A DNA stretch of 64,000 bases from a virus. Shown here piece by piece: positions 13,247 through 20,947 of this stretch. Numbering within the stretch: position 1 is the first letter of the stretch; each line of letters starts with the position of its first letter. The stretch lies in the IMG/VR virus record IMGVR_UViG_3300027822_000011; one strand, 5' to 3'. The translations under genes and the position numbers were made by a program. The notes under the pieces are model-generated. The model had not been told where the DNA came from and ran no database searches. It saw only the letters and a program-made list of their open reading frames with translations.

Positions 13247-13757
13247 TTAAAGGTGTTTCCATCTTATTTTTCTAATTATTCGTGAAATAGTTGTTTGAGC
13301 AACCTCAAATCTTTTTGCTAATTTTTCTTGACTATACTTTCCACTTTTATACAATTTTCTTATCCTGTTAACTTGATATTCAGATAATTTACATCCAGGA
13401 TGACTTATCCCATATGGCATTAAATTATTTTCTGCAGCATGTATCATATTTTCTTGATGAGTCATCCACTCAAGATTATTCCACCAATTATTACCACAAT
13501 TACCATCTTTGTGATTACATTCATGAATTGGTGATGGTTTTGGTGGACCAAAATGAATTAAAACCAATAAATGGATATCTTTATGATAAAAGGTTTTATC
13601 TTGATAAAGTCCAACATACTTTCTACCTCCTAAATTTTTAGCGTGTTTTAATATTCTTGTAATCTTCCCTTTAAACAATCTAACTCTACCAAAACATGAA
13701 ATTTGATAATACAAAAAAACCCTCAATATCTTTCCATCTTTCGGTATTTCTTTTCAT
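13247..13757 (-). pseudogene. NUMOD4-HNH endonuclease with a 1-nt frameshift in a T7 run near its start
   Basis: ATG 13757 gives MKRNTERWKDIEGF; removing one T joins it to LYYQISCFGRV and the HNH motif CNHKDGNCGNNWWNNLEW. Confidence 0.7.
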
Positions 13758-13906
13758 TTATTAAGACCCTTCCGCACATATTTTTTGACCTGATCTGCTT
13801 TAGTAAGAGTATGAAAATAACTTATCAATCTTTCTTTTGCCTTTTGCTTAGTAAGTGATTTTCCTTGCCCTGGTTCCAAAAGCCAGGTAGCTAAATAAAT
13901 CCTCAT
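13754..13906 (-). CDS. Mini-ORF of the TGT N-terminal-module family (50 aa)
   Basis: MRIYLATWLLEPGQGKSLTKQKAKERLISYFHTLTKADQVKKYVRKGLNK; ATGA overlaps. Confidence 0.75.
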   Translation of the reverse strand: MRIYLATWLLEPGQGKSLTKQKAKERLISYFHTLTKADQVKKYVRKGLNK

Positions 13907-14058
13907 CGTTTGGCCTTTTTTATTATTTTAAAAGAAAGCAAAGCATTAAACAACTTTGCATTAATTTCATAAAACGAAAGTAATCTATGATTTTTACGAA
14001 GCAAGAACTCCCTTTCTTTTGTTTTTCCAGCCACACTTCCTGCTAATATAATTTTCAT
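13903..14058 (-). CDS. Mini-ORF of the TGT N-terminal-module family (51 aa)
   Basis: MKIILAGSVAGKTKEREFLLRKNHRLLSFYEINAKLFNALLSFKIIKKAKR; ATGA overlaps. Confidence 0.75.
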   Translation of the reverse strand: MKIILAGSVAGKTKEREFLLRKNHRLLSFYEINAKLFNALLSFKIIKKAKR

Positions 14059-14234
14059 TTCTTTACCCCTAATAATCTATGATTAATGCGCCGTATTTCT
14101 TTGAAAACATTGCCGCAATATAAATCATTAATCTTGATACTCCAATAGCTTAAAAGGCGTTCTTTTATATCACACATCCTTTTTCCTGAAGTGGCTTCAG
14201 TCCCTGGGGCGGTACTTGCCAGATAAATTTTCAT
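14055..14234 (-). CDS. Mini-ORF of the TGT N-terminal-module family (59 aa)
   Basis: MKIYLASTAPGTEATSGKRMCDIKERLLSYWSIKINDLY...; ATGA overlaps. Confidence 0.75.
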   Translation of the reverse strand: MKIYLASTAPGTEATSGKRMCDIKERLLSYWSIKINDLYCGNVFKEIRRINHRLLGVKK

Positions 14235-14572
14235 TTCTTTACCCACGAAAGATTACTACTCCAATTATTGGTTTTATCCCCATCTTTAAAATGAACTTTA
14301 TATTGATATAACAATGCAGGCATTGGTGGCTTAAAATGAAGCAAAACCAAATGATGTATGTATAATACATGATATTCTTCTCTATCATTAATAACAACAA
14401 ATGAAAGACCCTTTTCATCCTTTTCAATTGGCAAAAATCTTTCGTTCAAAAAAGCAGGAACTCTTTTACCAAAATTAGCAATTTCACACGACTTAACTCT
14501 GCCCAGATTTGAAATAAAATAGTAATCAAGTCCTGTTATTTGTTTCCAGATTTCAAAGTTTCTTTTTATCAT
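14231..14572 (-). CDS. Short or degenerate NUMOD4-HNH protein
   Basis: EIWKQITGLDYYFISNLGRVKS; HFKDGDKTNNWSSNLSW. Confidence 0.7.
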   Translation of the reverse strand: MIKRNFEIWKQITGLDYYFISNLGRVKSCEIANFGKRVPAFLNERFLPIEKDEKGLSFVVINDREEYHVLYIHHLVLLHFKPPMPALLYQYKVHFKDGDKTNNWSSNLSWVKK

Positions 14573-16644
14573 TTTTCAAAAAAACCTTTCATTCTGCTTT
14601 TCAATATAAACGGCCAGGGCCAAGGTTTCATTTTCTTTTCCAAATCCAAGAAATAAATAATGTTCAATTCATCCCGCATTTTGTAATCATTACAAAGCCC
14701 CGGCTTAATAATTGTTTCAACAATACTTTCTTTCTTTTTATTCCATTTTTCATTTTTCTTTAAAACATATGTATCTGGGTTTTCATTCCTGAATGATGAT
14801 TTGCCCATTTTAAAGCCCTTTGCTTTATAATACTTTTTAAAAATTTTCTGTTGAACTGGGCTGAAAGTTTTGAAATGGGCTTCTTTCTTTTTTGCTGCTG
14901 GTGATTTACTACTAACCGTTATTTTTAATGGGTTTTTGTGATAATCATATTGACCATTACTTCTTCTGGGGATCAAGATTCCACCCATACGACCGGTCAT
15001 TACCCATGAAGTTGAATCAACCGAATTACCAGTAACATATATTTTATCATTACATCTCGTAAAAAAAGCCTTTGAAGGTACCCTGACACACCATAAATTA
15101 CCAGTATACTTTACTTCTTTTTGTTTTACTTCTTTAAAATAAATCCAATCAACTGAAGAACTATTTAAACCTTTCAACCCTTTCTTAGTAGAATAAATTG
15201 AAGTTGGAATTTCAAGAAGTAAACAAGCAATTCTAATTATTTCTAAATTATGTTTTTTTACTTTTCTTGATACTGCTATTGCAAAACCCTTTTTACGAAT
15301 TAATTTAGTAATAGACCCATCTGCTAAAACTGAACAATCAATAAATCTTTGTAATTGATCTCTAGTCAAGTCCCAAATAAAATGGATAGGAAGTTTTTTA
15401 TTAGGAGCTATCTCCAATAAAAAATCACGAATCTCCCCATATAATTCAAACCAATTTTCACCTTTACAATGAGCTTCATGTGATTCATCAAGTGCTCTTT
15501 GAATCCTTTCCACCTTCCCAAAATTAACCGAATCAGATTGATATAACATAACAGAATCTTTTTTATATTTTGATCTTTTTTTAATACTTCCATCTGTCCA
15601 AAACCAAGCAAGTAATTCAACCTGTTCATTTGTGTATTTTTTTTCAACCGGAAAAGAATATTTACCAACTCTTGGAATACAATCTCCAATTTTCATTGAA
15701 TTAGTTGTTCTAAATTTCCAATTTTCTTTTTTATTATTTTGATTAGTTGTTACCCAATTATGATTGTGAGTAACTCTTGCAGAAAAATTTCTATTATCCA
15801 TTGCAACCAAATCAATATTTTTTACTGGAAAAACTGGAATTTCAAGAATAGACTCCCACTGAGCTTTTCCTTGTGAATAACATAAAATATCTTCTCCAAC
15901 TTCTAAATCATTTTTAAACTTCCAACCTGATTTTGTAAGTACTTCGTGATCTTCTTCAGTCATACAATACCAAGGATACCGAAGCATCAGAGATAAGGAA
16001 GTCATACCAAACCCATGAATCTTAACCCGAGGTATTCCATCTTTATCACAAATATGATTTAAAAAGATATCATCAAGCCAGGGGCGCAAATCTTTTGTTG
16101 ATATTGGAACCATCCCACCAAGGGCAACATACTTGTATCCTTTCAAATACTTTTTTAAATATTTAATCGGTTCCCCAAAATGATAACAAGGTAATGGGCT
16201 CAATCCGGCTTTTTCCATTATCCGTTGATTTTTCAAAGTTTCATCTGGATCACCAATGGCATCCAAATTTGCGTAAACATCAATATATTCAATATTACTT
16301 TTAATAAATGCAATATATTCGTGAATATTAATTACGGCATTTTGTGACCAAGCTGAATAAGCCCCAGAATCCAAAAACAAATTTACCTTATTTTGTTTAT
16401 TTTTAGTTTTCATATACTCACCTATATTCCATTTTTTATTATATAACCATTTTAACTGATCAACTTTTTTAATCGGAAACTCATACCCATTTTCTTGTTT
16501 AATACAAAAACATTCGGTAATATCTTTATGCTTCAATACAGAATGACTGGCAAATGAATGTAATCTTTTATTAAATAAAGAGCAAATCTCCCTTTCCCTT
16601 TCCTTTGAATGAAACCCAGTGTTGCCATAAAAAAATAAGTGCAT
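14569..16644 (-). CDS. TGT-fold (DpdA-like) 7-deazaguanine insertion enzyme containing an intein
   Basis: LFLDSGAYSAW, ANLDAIGD, PCYHFGE, VALGGMV, KIHGFG and, after the intein, SVDSTSW; located in the que cluster. Confidence 0.8.
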   Translation of the reverse strand: MHLFFYGNTGFHSKEREREICSLFNKRLHSFASHSVLKHKDITECFCIKQENGYEFPIKKVDQLKWLYNKKWNIGEYMKTKNKQNKVNLFLDSGAYSAWSQNAVINIHEYIAFIKSNIEYIDVYANLDAIGDPDETLKNQRIMEKAGLSPLPCYHFGEPIKYLKKYLKGYKYVALGGMVPISTKDLRPWLDDIFLNHICDKDGIPRVKIHGFGMTSLSLMLRYPWYCMTEEDHEVLTKSGWKFKNDLEVGEDILCYSQGKAQWESILEIPVFPVKNIDLVAMDNRNFSARVTHNHNWVTTNQNNKKENWKFRTTNSMKIGDCIPRVGKYSFPVEKKYTNEQVELLAWFWTDGSIKKRSKYKKDSVMLYQSDSVNFGKVERIQRALDESHEAHCKGENWFELYGEIRDFLLEIAPNKKLPIHFIWDLTRDQLQRFIDCSVLADGSITKLIRKKGFAIAVSRKVKKHNLEIIRIACLLLEIPTSIYSTKKGLKGLNSSSVDWIYFKEVKQKEVKYTGNLWCVRVPSKAFFTRCNDKIYVTGNSVDSTSWVMTGRMGGILIPRRSNGQYDYHKNPLKITVSSKSPAAKKKEAHFKTFSPVQQKIFKKYYKAKGFKMGKSSFRNENPDTYVLKKNEKWNKKKESIVETIIKPGLCNDYKMRDELNIIYFLDLEKKMKPWPWPFILKSRMKGFFEK
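15025..15966 (-). mobile_element. Intein (314 aa) with LAGLIDADG homing endonuclease
   Basis: Starts PWY|CMTEEDHEVLT; block B RVTHNH; ELLAWFWTDGS and VLADGS endonuclease motifs; ends YVTGN|SVDS (Cys1, terminal Asn, +1 Ser). Confidence 0.9.
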
Positions 16645-16862
16645 TATTCAATCCTCTGTATACTACTCAATTCAAATTTGGCAATACCATTTTCAAGGAG
16701 TGCCACCAAATTTAAAGCCTCATCACATGCTTCTTTTTGTAAAGAATCTCTGGCATATATCAATATTTCTTTAAATTTATACATCTCATCTTCTGTTTCT
16801 ATATGGATAGCAAATGGAATAAACACCTTTTTTATTTCAATAATTTTCATAACTTCACCCAT
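16644..16862 (-). CDS. Hypothetical protein
   Basis: 72-aa ORF coupled to the TGT-like gene. Confidence 0.5.
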   Translation of the reverse strand: MGEVMKIIEIKKVFIPFAIHIETEDEMYKFKEILIYARDSLQKEACDEALNLVALLENGIAKFELSSIQRIE

Positions 16863-17071
16863 ATTCCATTTGATTTAGTATATCCATTTTGATTAAAACC
16901 AGCTTTAACCGTTTTTAATATCTCATCCATTTTGTCAAGAATTTGTTTAAATTCACCAGATTGAGAATGGGGCTGAACTCCGGTATATTCCCAATTTCCT
17001 TTCCAAAGTTCTTTTTTATCAAAATTTGACTTTTCTTTTCCGAGTTGATCCCAACTTTGTTTAAGTGTCAT
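16847..17071 (-). CDS. Hypothetical protein
   Basis: 74-aa ORF with AAGGAG RBS. Confidence 0.5.
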   Translation of the reverse strand: MTLKQSWDQLGKEKSNFDKKELWKGNWEYTGVQPHSQSGEFKQILDKMDEILKTVKAGFNQNGYTKSNGIWVKL

Positions 17072-17137
17072 TTAATTTCTCCTTTTTAAAGATACCAAAC
17101 CGTTTTAATCTTCGCCATTGTTTATCACAGGGGTGAA

Positions 17138-17242
17138 TCACAATATTTCAAAATATGAAAGCATTCTACCCCTGAATAAACGATTAGTATTAACCCTGGT
17201 AATAGGGCTTAAACCACCATTTCCAGCAAAGAAAATTTTCAT
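17138..17242 (-). CDS. Mini-ORF of the TGT N-terminal-module family (34 aa, possibly truncated by a frameshift)
   Basis: MKIFFAGNGGLSPITRVNTNRLFRGRMLSYFEIL; begins 3 nt after the yhhQ stop. Confidence 0.65.
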   Translation of the reverse strand: MKIFFAGNGGLSPITRVNTNRLFRGRMLSYFEIL

Positions 17243-17245
17243 CTT

Positions 17246-17803
17246 TTAGTCTATTAACTCTTCTAAATCTTTCAACCATCCTGTGGCATCTGGCTCTAAT
17301 GTGGATAATGTAAAATCCCAATGAATTCGTTTTTCTTTAATAAATGGTAAGACAAAAAGTCCTGATACATATTTAATCAAAGCCTGCCCCCAAATAGCTG
17401 GCCAATACCATCCAAAAGCAATGGAAACAAAAATCATTGAATCCAACGGACATGAAAGAATATTTGAAAAAATTATTCGTTTTTTCAAAGATACTTTCAA
17501 ATATTTAAAAATGTACCAATCCACAAATTCAGAAACTCCAAAAGCTGCCACCGATGCTAAAGCCACTTTTTGATTTAAAAAAAAAGTAATAAAAGTAGCA
17601 AGTATCATCCAAAGCCAGCAAGCTTTATCTCCCCATTTCCTTTGAACAAAATCCCGAAAAGAAAAAGTTAACCCCACAAAAATTACTCCTGCAGGAAAAG
17701 CCAACCCAGCAACTTTAACTATACCAAACCAGAGTACAAAAAGATTCCCTAAAAGAATTGATACAAGATACATAATTGGCCAAAAATACTTATTTTTTGT
17801 CAT
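17246..17803 (-). CDS. yhhQ: YhhQ/QPTR (VUT family) preQ0/preQ1 transporter-like membrane protein
   Basis: Multi-TM protein with GLTFSFRDFVQRKWG, ASVAAFGVSEFVDW, LDSMIFVSIAFG; in the que cluster. Confidence 0.8.
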   Translation of the reverse strand: MTKNKYFWPIMYLVSILLGNLFVLWFGIVKVAGLAFPAGVIFVGLTFSFRDFVQRKWGDKACWLWMILATFITFFLNQKVALASVAAFGVSEFVDWYIFKYLKVSLKKRIIFSNILSCPLDSMIFVSIAFGWYWPAIWGQALIKYVSGLFVLPFIKEKRIHWDFTLSTLEPDATGWLKDLEELID

Positions 17804-17806
17804 AAT

Positions 17807-17968
17807 TCATCTCCTATTTTTTAAAAGATTAAATGCCCGTTTTTGATAATGTTGGTCTCTTTCATCATATCTTATTTCAAAAAATGATAAAAGCCTTTTC
17901 CGCAAAACAAGTAACCAACCAGTTTCCCTTTTTTTAAAACCTGAACTACCTGCCATATAGATTAACAT
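17807..17968 (-). CDS. Mini-ORF of the TGT N-terminal-module family (53 aa)
   Basis: MLIYMAGSSGFKKRETGWLLVLRKRLLSFFEIRYDERDQHYQKRAFNLLKNRR. Confidence 0.75.
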   Translation of the reverse strand: MLIYMAGSSGFKKRETGWLLVLRKRLLSFFEIRYDERDQHYQKRAFNLLKNRR

Positions 17969-18120
17969 AATGATTTCCAAAACAAAAAAACCTGCCGCAT
18001 TGTAATATCAATTTTATGAAAATAATAAGAATATAGCCGGCGTTTAATCACTCCATGTTTAATCAATTCCTTTTCTTCCCTTACCCGATCAGGAATATTG
18101 CCGGCTAAATAAATAATCAT
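17962..18120 (-). CDS. Mini-ORF of the TGT N-terminal-module family (52 aa)
   Basis: MIIYLAGNIPDRVREEKELIKHGVIKRRLYSYYFHKIDITMRQVFLFWKSLC; ATGA overlap with the folE stop. Confidence 0.75.
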   Translation of the reverse strand: MIIYLAGNIPDRVREEKELIKHGVIKRRLYSYYFHKIDITMRQVFLFWKSLC

Positions 18121-19031
18121 TTAATAAATCCTAAAAATTCAGCCCTGACTTTTTGTTTTTCTTTAAAAACCCCTTTAATTGATGAAGTCACCATTGTTGA
18201 AGTTTGCTGTTCAACCCCCCTGGCTGTCATGCATGAATGCCGGGCTTCAATTACACAAGCTGCCCCTTTTGGTTTCAAATATTTCATCAGTGCATTTGTG
18301 ACCTGTTCACCAATTCTTTCTTGAATCTGAAGCCGGCGAGAATAAATCTCCAAAAGCCTGGCCAATTTTGATACTCCAATTACCCTGCCATTTGGTATAT
18401 AAGCAATATGAGCAACCCCGTTAAATGGCAACATATGATGCTCACAAGTTGAATGCATTGTGATGTCCTTTAATACCACCATTTCATCACAATCATCTTC
18501 AGAAAAAGTTTTCATTATTTTTTCCGGATCCATTTCATAGCCACCATAAATCCTATCAAACGATTTAATGACCCTTTTTGGAGTTTCCACCAATCCTTCC
18601 CGGGTTATATCATCCCCTATATATTCAATCAATCGGACAACACTTGATTCAATATCATTCTCCGCTTTTGGTTCCCACCAAAAATGAATCCATTCATTTG
18701 GAAAATAACAAGCGGCAAACTGAAGATCTGGAAAAAATTTAGCCGCATGGTCTTTGATACCAAGAACCGCCACTGGATATCCATCAAATGCTTTAATGGT
18801 TTTACCTGAATCAATCAAATCATCAACAATTAAAATTTCTGATCTTTTGTATTTGGTAAAATTCTTTAATTCAATTAACGGCAAATCAAGAGAAACCCCC
18901 AAAGCAACCGCCAATGGAATACCGCCACGTGGAATTCCATAAATTGCTTTTAAATTAGTTTTTGAATTTTTTATAGCATCAAAAAGATACTCAACAGCAT
19001 CTTGAAAATCCTCTAACGAATATTCAATCAT
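18117..19031 (-). CDS. folE: Type I phosphoribosyltransferase fused to GTP cyclohydrolase I
   Basis: N-terminal GIPRGG and LIVDDLIDSGKT (PRPP loop); C-terminal STCEHHMLPF, GVSKLAR, RRLQIQE; true start at the ATGA overlap with queC. Confidence 0.9.
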   Translation of the reverse strand: MIEYSLEDFQDAVEYLFDAIKNSKTNLKAIYGIPRGGIPLAVALGVSLDLPLIELKNFTKYKRSEILIVDDLIDSGKTIKAFDGYPVAVLGIKDHAAKFFPDLQFAACYFPNEWIHFWWEPKAENDIESSVVRLIEYIGDDITREGLVETPKRVIKSFDRIYGGYEMDPEKIMKTFSEDDCDEMVVLKDITMHSTCEHHMLPFNGVAHIAYIPNGRVIGVSKLARLLEIYSRRLQIQERIGEQVTNALMKYLKPKGAACVIEARHSCMTARGVEQQTSTMVTSSIKGVFKEKQKVRAEFLGFIK

Positions 19032-19693
19032 TTTTCCTCCTGATATTGAAGTGGATCTTTGTGCCCATTCATTTGAAATGCTTCTTTTCTTTCCACACAG
19101 CTGCCACACTTTCCACAAGCCAAATCATTTGAAGAATAGCAAGTCCGTGTAGACTGATAAGGAACCCCCAATTTCATACCAATTTCAACAATTTTACTTT
19201 TTGACAAATAAAGAAATGGAGCGTATATTCCTTGTACAGTATTATCGGTACCAAAATCTATAGCCCGCCCCATATGCCAAATAAATTCTGGTCTACAATC
19301 TGGATAAATATGATGATCTCCCGCATGGACTCCAAGGGCTATTTTATCAATTTTTCTGGTTTCTGCAATCCCGGCCAAAATACTTGAAAAAATCATATTT
19401 CTGGCAGGAACAACTGTTTGTTTCATTGACTCAGCCTGATAATGTCCTTCAGGGAGGGGTCCCCCTAAATTTAGCAAAGCTGATTCAATACCAGTCATTG
19501 CCTGTGAAATATCAATTAATTTCAAATTAATTTTATAATATGCAGCTATCACTTTTGCCGCTGTATTTTCCAAATCATTATGTTTAGAACCATAATAAAA
19601 TGAAATGGCTTCAACTTCATTTCCTTTATTCAATAAATAAGCAGCTAAAGTAGTTGAATCAAGTCCACCTGATAAAGAAAGCAAATATTTCAT
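19028..19693 (-). CDS. queC: 7-cyano-7-deazaguanine (preQ0) synthase
   Basis: LSGGLDSTT, VPARNMIF, YPDCRPEF, TCY..CGKCGSC. Confidence 0.95.
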   Translation of the reverse strand: MKYLLSLSGGLDSTTLAAYLLNKGNEVEAISFYYGSKHNDLENTAAKVIAAYYKINLKLIDISQAMTGIESALLNLGGPLPEGHYQAESMKQTVVPARNMIFSSILAGIAETRKIDKIALGVHAGDHHIYPDCRPEFIWHMGRAIDFGTDNTVQGIYAPFLYLSKSKIVEIGMKLGVPYQSTRTCYSSNDLACGKCGSCVERKEAFQMNGHKDPLQYQEEK

Positions 19694-19714
19694 AAATCAT
19701 TCCTTAATAAAGAA

Positions 19715-19744
19715 ATCCCCGGAAAACACAAAGCCCCCGGGGAT
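19715..19744 (-). terminator. Intrinsic terminator-like hairpin
   Basis: 8-bp perfect stem ATCCCCGG/CCGGGGAT followed by TTCTTT on the minus strand. Confidence 0.65.
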
Positions 19745-19780
19745 CATTTAACAAACAGGGCTATTTAAACTGATAGCCGT

Positions 19781-20947
19781 CTATTTTGAAGTCTTGGCAA
19801 CCCCGTCTTGGGTTTTTTTGAAAACCCATTTCCCTTTGTCGTTTTCGGTAAGAGAGGCGTTCTTTTCCTTACGAATCCGGTTGGGAACCTGAATGTTCAA
19901 GGTCTTTTCCATTTTATCAATATCACGATCCGGAAAGGCTTTGCCCAGTTTTTTCAACAGGGTCTTTTTGCTCATAGGTTTGGAACTGATCAGGGAAACA
20001 ATAGTTGCGATCACCCCCGGCTTTTTGCCTTTCTTTTCTTTACCGGCCGGTTCAATACCAAGTTTTTTCAGCATAAGTTTTTTCAGATCACGGGCACCAT
20101 CAAGTCCTTTAAACTTTTTAGCTTTTTTCTGAATCTTTTTGAATTCATCATTACCGGCAACGAGTTCCTGTAATTCAACCAGCTTTTTGGTCCCTTTTAC
20201 CTTTTCTTCAATGGACAGGGCTTCATCATCGTTATCGTCGTTGTCATCGTCGTTGTCATCGTCGTTGTCATCATCATCATCGTTGTCATTATCGTTGTCA
20301 TCATCATCGTCGTCGTCGTCATCATCATCGTCATCATCATCATTATCATCGTCGTCGTCATTATCGTTGTCATCGTTGTCATCGTCATCGTTATCATTAT
20401 CATCGTTATCATTATCATCGTTATCATCTGATTCGGACAGACCCAGGGCGACAGCAATTTCAATTCGTAATTCCCCAACCTTTTTGCCGGATGTTTTGAT
20501 TTTTAATTTTTTTTCTTTATTAAGGGCTTTCAAATCGGCCGTTTTCATTTTCATGATATCGGCAAGGCTCAATTCATCATCACCACCAGCATCATCATCG
20601 TTATCGTCGTTGTCATCGTCGTTGTCATCGTCGTTGTCATCGTCATTGTCATCGTCGTTGTCATCGTCGTTGTCATCGTCGTTGTCATCGTCGTTGTCAT
20701 TTGGGGGATCTAAGACCTCCACTTTAAACTTTGTCAAAACTGCGGCCAATTCTTCTGAGATTTCATCATCGGTAGTCAGGCAGGCAGCAACTTGAATAAT
20801 TTTCTTTTTCACCTGCTTCAAATTCCCTTTTGTAATAACGATTTTATCATCATTGTCATCAGTCGGGTTCACGATCACCTGAAGTTCTTTACCAACCTTT
20901 TTCAATGTTTTCAAATCTTTCACATCTACTTTCGTCTTTTTAGCCAT
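19781..20947 (-). CDS. Asp/Asn-tract protein with a small helical (Rho-N/SAP-like) domain and a basic C-terminal domain
   Basis: Two D/N tracts; C-terminal KKPGVIATI...NIQVPNRIRK resembles the C-terminus of ORF 35433; AAGGAG RBS before MAKK. Confidence 0.8.
   Translation of the reverse strand: MAKKTKVDVKDLKTLKKVGKELQVIVNPTDDNDDKIVITKGNLKQVKKKIIQVAACLTTDDEISEELAAVLTKFKVEVLDPPNDNDDDNDDDNDDDNDDDNDDDNDDDNDDDNDDNDDDAGGDDELSLADIMKMKTADLKALNKEKKLKIKTSGKKVGELRIEIAVALGLSESDDNDDNDNDDNDNDDDDNDDNDNDDDDDNDDDDDDDDDDDDDDDNDNDNDDDDDNDDDNDDDNDDNDDEALSIEEKVKGTKKLVELQELVAGNDEFKKIQKKAKKFKGLDGARDLKKLMLKKLGIEPAGKEKKGKKPGVIATIVSLISSKPMSKKTLLKKLGKAFPDRDIDKMEKTLNIQVPNRIRKEKNASLTENDKGKWVFKKTQDGVAKTSK
20225..20700 (-). 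repeat. Two Asp/Asn triplet tracts (about 20225-20430 and 20590-20700), including gtcatcgtcgtt 12-mers
   Basis: Direct inspection; encodes NDDD repeats. Confidence 0.95.

Follow-up and report, generated by a model that had tools for sequence, protein, structure and literature searches.

In the stretch of viral DNA analysed here (64,000 nucleotides, IMG/VR virus record IMGVR_UViG_3300027822_000011; hereafter called the window), a single open reading frame (ORF) of 691 amino acids (aa) combines a small N-terminal module, a linker and an intein-interrupted core, and sequence comparison identifies it as a DpdA1-type DNA 7-deazaguanine transglycosylase. An in-frame ATG that is preceded by a Shine–Dalgarno (SD) motif is located inside this ORF at position 16413, where the module and its linker end and the core begins. 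We consider it somewhat better than an even chance that this gene is a re-fused split enzyme, which makes both the complete chain and a "headless" core, and the comparative data summarized below suggest that the headless core is probably also made from position 16413. According to this model, a mini-gene and the core, which now share a reading frame that no stop codon interrupts, would have been joined in one of many re-fusions of a split enzyme. Ribosomes starting at 16644, coupled via a TAATG overlap, would synthesize the complete single-chain enzyme. The strong and unstructured ribosome-binding site (RBS) retained at 16413 would give rise to the headless core too, and this protein could only be completed in trans, by one of six free quarter-barrel mini-proteins encoded nearby. 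We infer the use of the internal start, the assembly in trans and any change in DNA-motif specificity from sequence and position.

The minus strand around the internal start reads AATATAGGTGAGTATATGAAAACTAAAAAT, and the site is located 77 codons into the ORF (AATATAGGTGAGTATATGAAAACT). The original prediction, which was based on the letters of the window, had placed an SD motif and an in-frame ATG at this position of the 691-aa ORF and had given the peptide encoded from there as MKTKNKQNKVNLFLDSGAYSAW. Both statements are exact, and the proposed anatomy, in which a module precedes a core and an internal RBS marks the junction, is also right. The anti-SD duplex energy of the internal site was calculated as −8.6 kcal/mol, and AAA follows directly after the start site. 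The phage of the window uses SD sites: among its long ORFs this strength or better was found for 27% of the first ATGs and for 4.3% of the 438 internal in-frame ATGs. Since chance would yield roughly one site of this strength for every 23 internal ATGs, the internal SD motif by itself is only suggestive, not decisive. It is raised above chance by its position, which coincides exactly with the start of the core-only homologues. P0002, for instance, begins with MKTKNKKNKVNLFLDSGAFSA / MKTKNKKNKVNLF, and the leader MKTKNKQNKV after the internal ATG is nearly identical to the N-terminus of the headless orthologues.

Comparison with the other start sites of the gene cluster places the internal RBS in the same class as those of the enzyme genes, for which we calculated −9.4 (YhhQ), −10.3 (phosphoribosyltransferase-FolE) and −7.4 kcal/mol (QueC). 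The starts of all seven modules of the cluster, including the start of the long ORF at 16644 (−6.6 kcal/mol), vary between −2.4 and −6.6 kcal/mol and depend on ATGA or TAATG overlaps; the internal RBS exceeds every one of them in strength. When the RNA around the internal start was folded, no structure (z −0.48) and no signal of riboregulation were observed, and a promoter scan of positions 13600–19800 yielded 26 sites versus 27.3 expected, which provides no evidence for an internal promoter. With AGGTGA-N4-ATG, the ORF has an in-frame internal start codon with its own RBS, which is one hallmark of a dual-start gene. The second hallmark, conservation of the internal start in long-form relatives, was also found, though the SD motif of these relatives is often weak (median −4.1).

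To the core, residues 72–226 contribute a match to the queuine tRNA-ribosyltransferase family phrog_887 of PHROGs (E 6.7e-51). The part of the core in front of the intein (N-extein) shares 44–53% identity with DpdA of cultured phages, and in tblastn the DpdA of Pseudomonas phage Iggy (46% identity, E 1e-31) and that of JenP1 (44.7%) were retrieved. Both belong to the DpdA1 type (PMC6884629; PMC10484667). The putative catalytic Asp residues of FLDSGA, NLD and SVDSTSW, which are equivalent to D102, D156 and D280 of tRNA-guanine transglycosylase (TGT), are invariant. Structural modeling with AlphaFold2 (AF2) was carried out for two intein-less fused homologues and not for the intein-bearing chain of the window. 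In these models (pLDDT 86–88), the core was confidently predicted and matched TGTs with Z-scores of 12–13 and DpdA (7UI4) with a Z-score of 12.6 over 250 residues, which identifies a TGT-type triosephosphate isomerase (TIM) barrel. The core begins at model residue 46, which aligns with residue 91 of the Z. mobilis TGT, and the Asp of the DSG motif (model D57) aligns numerically with TGT Asp102. In Salmonella DpdA the equivalent Asp95 follows beta1, beta2 and the insertions Ins1 and Ins2 (PMC10164549). A profile of the fused family did not match any chain when compared with the PDB sequences.

The N-terminal module belongs to a repeated family (MKIYLAG..RE..RLLSYY), of which the minus strand encodes seven copies between positions 13754 and 18120. 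Free-standing ORFs of 34–59 aa account for six copies, and the remaining one (module 7) opens the long ORF. Searching 1.84 billion proteins with the seven-copy profile, we obtained 146 representative clusters, nearly all of them 45–70 aa in length with the module at residue 1. The cultured DpdA1 enzymes all carry a fused N-terminal segment of 55–65 aa, such as MKLYLAGIYTSNF...YLESYHYIHKQAYVDKIRADGVKVFLDSGAFSA. When a profile of 60 free mini-proteins was aligned by hhalign with this segment, cut before FLDSGA, a probability of 80% and an E-value of 1.4e-5 were obtained over 34 columns. Thus, the free fragment is homologous to the contiguous part that is missing from the core, as one would expect for a split enzyme. 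Because of this homology and because the core starts at TGT residue 91, the module corresponds by homology and position to the first barrel quarter (beta1-alpha1-beta2-alpha2) and the part after 16413 to beta3 to beta8; residues 1–36 of the window ORF are the predicted equivalent of beta1-alpha1-beta2.

The first 77 aa had been described in the original prediction as a module plus a short linker. The module was recovered (about residues 1–36), but the linker is not short, since it involves 41 aa. It carries an aromatic NGYEF...KKW pattern, which is also present in the linkers of other fused forms. Residues 1–51 share 47% identity (pairwise E 1e-16) with P0135, a free-standing mini-protein of 75 aa. 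A metagenome scan for module 7 orthologues returned 178 pattern matches and not a single confirmed orthologue. The modules are conserved as proteins, while their codons diverge and their alternative frames are closed, and we therefore rejected the idea that they serve as PeSL-type recombination linkers at the DNA level. We also rejected that the last 26 codons of the extension arose by a frameshift, since the other frames are filled with stop codons and gave no match; that 26 codons stay open by chance at 34% GC has a probability of about 0.14 (our own estimate from the stop-codon frequency) and is uninformative. Pfam and PHROGs searches with the 77-aa extension and five free modules did not identify any family, one free module compared by tblastn with cultured phages gave no match at E 1, and a viral scan with the single protein P0118 added little.

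As gene callers may favour an internal start, we examined 94 non-redundant IMG/VR genes over the full distance between stop codons and classified a gene as headless when an in-frame stop was present at most 25 codons upstream of the motif. Here, a fused module was found in 51 genes, and 28 genes proved to be truly headless (15 unclear); about a third of the relatives encode the core by itself, in a gene that starts at the Met corresponding to position 16413. The proximal internal ATG is kept in 43 of the 51 fused genes (84%). A total of 90 of the 120 best database homologues were called from a Met located not more than 16 residues before the motif, and the 26 homologues with an extension of at least 35 aa have all kept the internal Met. 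It is also still present in most members of an older coherent fused subfamily (KLHSYFH...GFEKKWF). Each of the 14 headless loci with full flanks contains free modules (2–6 per locus), so that genuinely separate cistrons, which always occur together, exist in the relatives, as one would expect for a split enzyme. Free modules were also detected at 31 of 34 fused loci. In our first set of 79 loci a separate module ORF abuts the core at 18 loci, and all matches of the refined module profile in this set are on the DpdA strand. Fused genes with the internal ATG are accompanied by a median of three free modules versus one for fused genes without it (one-sided p 0.02), but the smaller group comprises only five genes and the test ignores relatedness.

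The fused and headless states are labile. On the core tree the label requires 20 changes among 82 labelled tips (22.2 ± 1.8 for shuffled labels), and the well-supported branches alone force at least eight. Of the cores closest to that of the window, P0001 (82% identity) is headless and L001 (81%) is fused to a different module type. Taken together, these comparisons indicate that fusion and fission are frequent among the relatives and that the fusion in the window ORF is probably recent. A recent fusion by loss of a stop codon had been put forward as the alternative to a two-isoform gene, and it gains comparative support from the states of the closest cores, from the match of the extension to the free P0135 and from the roughly 20 state changes. 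The two readings are, however, not mutually exclusive. A further arrangement was noticed in Mycobacterium phage Nadezda (L184, 335–1527), where a 45-aa ORF lies ahead of the annotated DpdA, whose start coincides with a beta2-like motif (MNLLWSYVY). In this cultured phage the enzyme may be split in a different manner, or its start may have been called wrongly.

Several observations weigh against the model of a re-fused split enzyme with two protein products. The fused single chain is the canonical form in cultured phages, and eight of the 51 fused genes do not have the proximal ATG, which means that the fused protein alone can suffice. The internal SD motifs of fused relatives are weaker (median −4.1) than those of headless genes (−5.5, p 0.03), and thus the ATG could be a relic of frequent recent fusions. 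Moreover, the internal site may be covered by ribosomes that have started at 16644 and are elongating. In both AF2 models the module was not confidently built into the barrel even in cis (pLDDT 44–71), and in the second model short module strands were seen at residues 5–6 and 28–29; the barrel-completion idea therefore follows from homology and position and not from a model. If only the full-length fused protein mattered, the internal SD and ATG would be leftovers of the fusion with little or no use, and the free modules would act otherwise or compete with the cis module. Such leftovers are to be expected when fused and split states flip frequently, and the weak SD motifs of the fused relatives, the eight genes without ATG and the single-chain nature of the characterized cultured DpdA1 enzymes fit this explanation. 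We nevertheless consider it unlikely, since the internal SD of the window gene is strong, unstructured and above the ORF's own start, since the ATG is kept in most fused genes and in every N-extended database homologue, and since the Met persists in most of the older fused subfamily. The opposite possibility is that 16413 is the principal start, that the upstream 77 codons are a mini-gene that has lost its stop and that the fusion is a minor read-through by-product. For this scenario speak the states of the two closest cores, the free P0135, which has the same size as the 77-aa extension and is 47% identical, and the contrast between a module-grade SD at 16644 and an enzyme-grade SD at 16413. 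It is improbable in view of the canonical fused architecture of cultured DpdA1, of the eight relatives in which a fused product is the sole possibility, so that the fused form is very likely active, and of the TAATG overlap, which ensures translation of module 7.

We also considered that the modules might have nothing to do with DpdA completion (small regulators, anti-defence peptides, leader peptides or recombination linkers) and that the N-terminal extension is irrelevant to catalysis. The lack of confident AF2 docking and of Pfam or PHROG matches and the location of modules beside variable inserted genes (YhhQ, HNH) are in line with this idea, but we regard it as very improbable because of the profile homology to the DpdA1 N-terminal segment, the constant location near DpdA and on its strand, the absence of headless genes without modules, the lack of beta1-beta2 in the core relative to the TGT and DpdA structures, and the conservation of the modules as proteins, the other frames being closed. 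For the re-fused split enzyme, the two isoforms with free mini-proteins as swap-in partners, as envisaged in the original prediction, receive comparative support from the homology of the module to the DpdA1 segment, from the constant company of free modules at headless genes, from the 84% retention of the ATG and from the enzyme-grade SD; initiation at 16413 and binding of a mini-protein to the core are predicted. A more far-reaching version of this reading, which we consider doubtful, is that the seven modules are interchangeable quarter-barrel subunits. The fused gene would then provide a default enzyme plus a free core, which could be re-equipped by the six other modules to retarget 7-deazaguanine insertion to further sequence motifs and to widen protection from restriction. 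The modules would carry the beta1/alpha1 and beta2/alpha2 loops, for which contacts to DNA and a position beside the active site have been proposed in bacterial DpdA, and the motif choice of DpdA1 enzymes differs between phages, with GA only for Iggy and GA, GGC and GGT for CAjan (PMC10484667).

The coordinates of the gene, its parts and the free modules are summarized in Table 1. The intein (CMTEED...VTGN|SVDSTSW) begins with Cys, ends with Asn and is followed by Ser at the +1 position, and its excision (residues 227–540) exactly restores RYPWY-SVDSTSW as in the intein-less homologues. It is inserted directly before SVDSTSW, the motif that contains the putative nucleophile Asp. A LAGLIDADG_3 homing-endonuclease match (17.3 bits) was below the cut-off of 22.5, and the nearest relatives in tblastn are actinophage inteins, which interrupt genes for terminase, portal protein and methylase. 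The intein is absent from all of the 120 best short homologues.

Table 1. Features of the DpdA1-type gene and of the free module mini-genes in the window
Feature	Position	Strand	Evidence
691-aa ORF: module 7, linker and intein-interrupted DpdA1-type transglycosylase core	14569..16644	minus	ORF list, phrog_887, identity to cultured-phage DpdA
TAATG, stop of upstream 72-aa ORF overlapping the ATG of the long ORF; AGAGGA SD upstream, −6.6 kcal/mol	16642..16646	minus	Sequence, anti-SD energy
Module 7 proper, residues 1–36, MHLFFYGNTGFHSKEREREICSLFNKRLHSFASHSV	16537..16644	minus	Family hidden Markov model, 60 bits; profile comparison with DpdA1 N-terminal segment; homologues P0135, P0024
Module 7 tail/linker, 41 aa, residues 37–77	16414..16536	minus	Residues 37–51 still align with free P0135
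Internal SD AGGTGA, 4 nt before ATG (7 nt from GG of the GGAGG register)	16418..16423	minus	−8.6 kcal/mol; unstructured A/U-rich context
In-frame internal ATG, codon 78, start of the separately encoded headless core in relatives	16411..16413	minus	Homologue comparison
Core N-extein, residues 79–226	15967..16410	minus	FLDSGA strand on TGT Asp102 strand (beta3), then NLD, HxGE, LGGM, HGFG motifs
Intein, 314 aa, residues 227–540, Cys1 ... Gly-Asn / +1 Ser	15025..15966	minus	Boundaries; tblastn; sub-threshold LAGLIDADG_3
Core C-extein, residues 541–691, plus stop codon	14569..15024	minus	73–76% identity to C-terminal part of intein-less homologues
Free module mini-gene, 52 aa	17962..18120	minus	Family membership
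Free module mini-gene, 53 aa from MLIYMAG start	17807..17968	minus	Family membership
Free module mini-gene, 34 aa	17138..17242	minus	Identical protein in public library (P0124)
Free module mini-gene, 59 aa	14055..14234	minus	Orthologue at same place in L001
Free module mini-gene, 51 aa	13903..14058	minus	Family membership, L001 comparison
Free module mini-gene, 50 aa, MRIYLATWLLEP type	13754..13906	minus	Family membership, L001 comparison

From Table 1 it can be seen that the stop codon of a 72-aa ORF overlaps the start of the long ORF, and this arrangement points to translational coupling. The genes for QueC (19028–19693) and for a phosphoribosyltransferase-FolE fusion (18117–19031), which are linked genes of preQ0 synthesis, and a YhhQ-like gene are in the same strand run as DpdA; QueD and QueE are additionally present in the syntenic relative L001. 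The fusion at 18117–19031 (minus strand) joins a phosphoribosyltransferase-like domain to GTP cyclohydrolase I, and L001 has the same fusion. The interval between FolE and DpdA is variable. In the window (16644–18120) it contains two modules, the YhhQ-like gene, a further module and a pair of small ORFs, and its counterpart in L001 (5697–5869) is a single unrelated 54-aa ORF; the genes inserted between FolE and DpdA are flanked by modules. Downstream of DpdA, two NUMOD4/HNH homing-endonuclease genes (14231–14572 and 13247–13726, minus strand) bracket three tandem modules, and the first of them (14231–14572) is not present in L001. When the cluster was compared by blastn with cultured phages, only one match of 200 bp was found.

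The module family itself is variable in its arrangement. P0134 (405 aa, from a GC-rich source) carries three tandem modules, each Met-initial, fused in frame before a DpdA core, and two-module tandem fusions are present in P0123, P0128, P0150, P0202, P0203 and P0227. The mini-proteins P0130, P0131, P0144, P0157, P0159, P0161 and P0163 have C-termini of the type ...NEN(L/I)(F/L/S)(C/G)R. These ends are the ATGAAAATTTATCTTGCAGG of the next module read one base out of frame, and thus tandem mini-genes commonly overlap the next start. At related loci (e.g. L053:3880–3900, L080, L085, L017, L043, L079) the RERE of the module frequently corresponds to an (AG)n tract of 10–19 nt in the DNA. In 602 kb, 49 such tracts were on the coding strand and one on the other strand, and 15 of 36 distinct tract-bearing modules are out of frame across the tract. 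From their sequence, the tracts look like elements of slipped-strand on/off switching or of programmed slippage. The modules of the window do not have an (AG)n tract, and module 7 uses GAAAGGGAAAGGGAG.

The closest known systems are the phage DpdA1 enzymes (Iggy gp44 and those of the Escherichia phages CAjan, 9g and JenP1; PMC6884629, PMC10484667). They share with the window gene 44–47% identity over the core N-extein, the catalytic motifs FLDSGA, NLD, HGFG and VDS, a neighbourhood with FolE, QueC, QueD, QueE and a sliding clamp, and a fused N-terminal beta1-beta2 segment that is homologous to the module. In contrast, the N-terminal segment of the window enzyme is shorter and does not have the 12-aa IYTSN loop, and the linker that connects it to the core is much longer. 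Duplication of this segment has given six free mini-genes, and an internal RBS and ATG have been retained behind it; moreover, the window enzyme carries an intein. The DpdA of Salmonella Montevideo (PDB 7UI4; PMC10164549) and the TGTs have the TIM-barrel fold and the position of the DSG Asp on TGT Asp102 in common with the window family, but they are single chains, with beta1-beta2 and the insertions Ins1 and Ins2 inside the polypeptide.

In-frame internal initiation leading to two proteoforms is known for gene 4A/4B of phage T7, for A/A* of phiX174 and for infB and clpB of E. coli. There, as predicted for the window, a longer ORF contains an in-frame ATG with an SD motif, from which a shorter protein without the N-terminal module is made. 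In the window case both products are predicted from the sequence, the short form would be an incomplete barrel needing a separately encoded fragment, and the internal start would descend from the original start of a gene that was once separate. Precedents also exist for enzymes that are naturally split and for the complementation of fragments, such as the split archaeal TGT and the split inteins. In these systems, as in the window family, two cistrons encode contiguous parts of what elsewhere is one chain, and fused and split forms coexist. The split of the window family differs in that it would be located inside the barrel, after beta2, and in that several paralogous alternatives exist for the small fragment. 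In the literature searched we did not find a paper describing a split DpdA or its mini-genes. New here are the fused state with an internal start, the data on how often it occurs and the finding that the fused and split states are labile.

For genome annotation these data mean that start-site callers will disagree on this family: 90 of 120 homologues were called from the internal Met, yet more than half of the related genes are open upstream through the module when read from stop to stop. The window gene may represent an intermediate state, a re-fused gene that still bears the start signals of a headless gene. For this gene, two proteoforms that differ by 77 residues are predicted, and a single construct would allow the use of the module in cis and in trans to be compared. 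If the first barrel quarter is indeed a separable subunit present in multiple copies, the family would provide a natural example of modular specificity in an enzyme with a TIM barrel, and also a rare one of fragment complementation within such a barrel.

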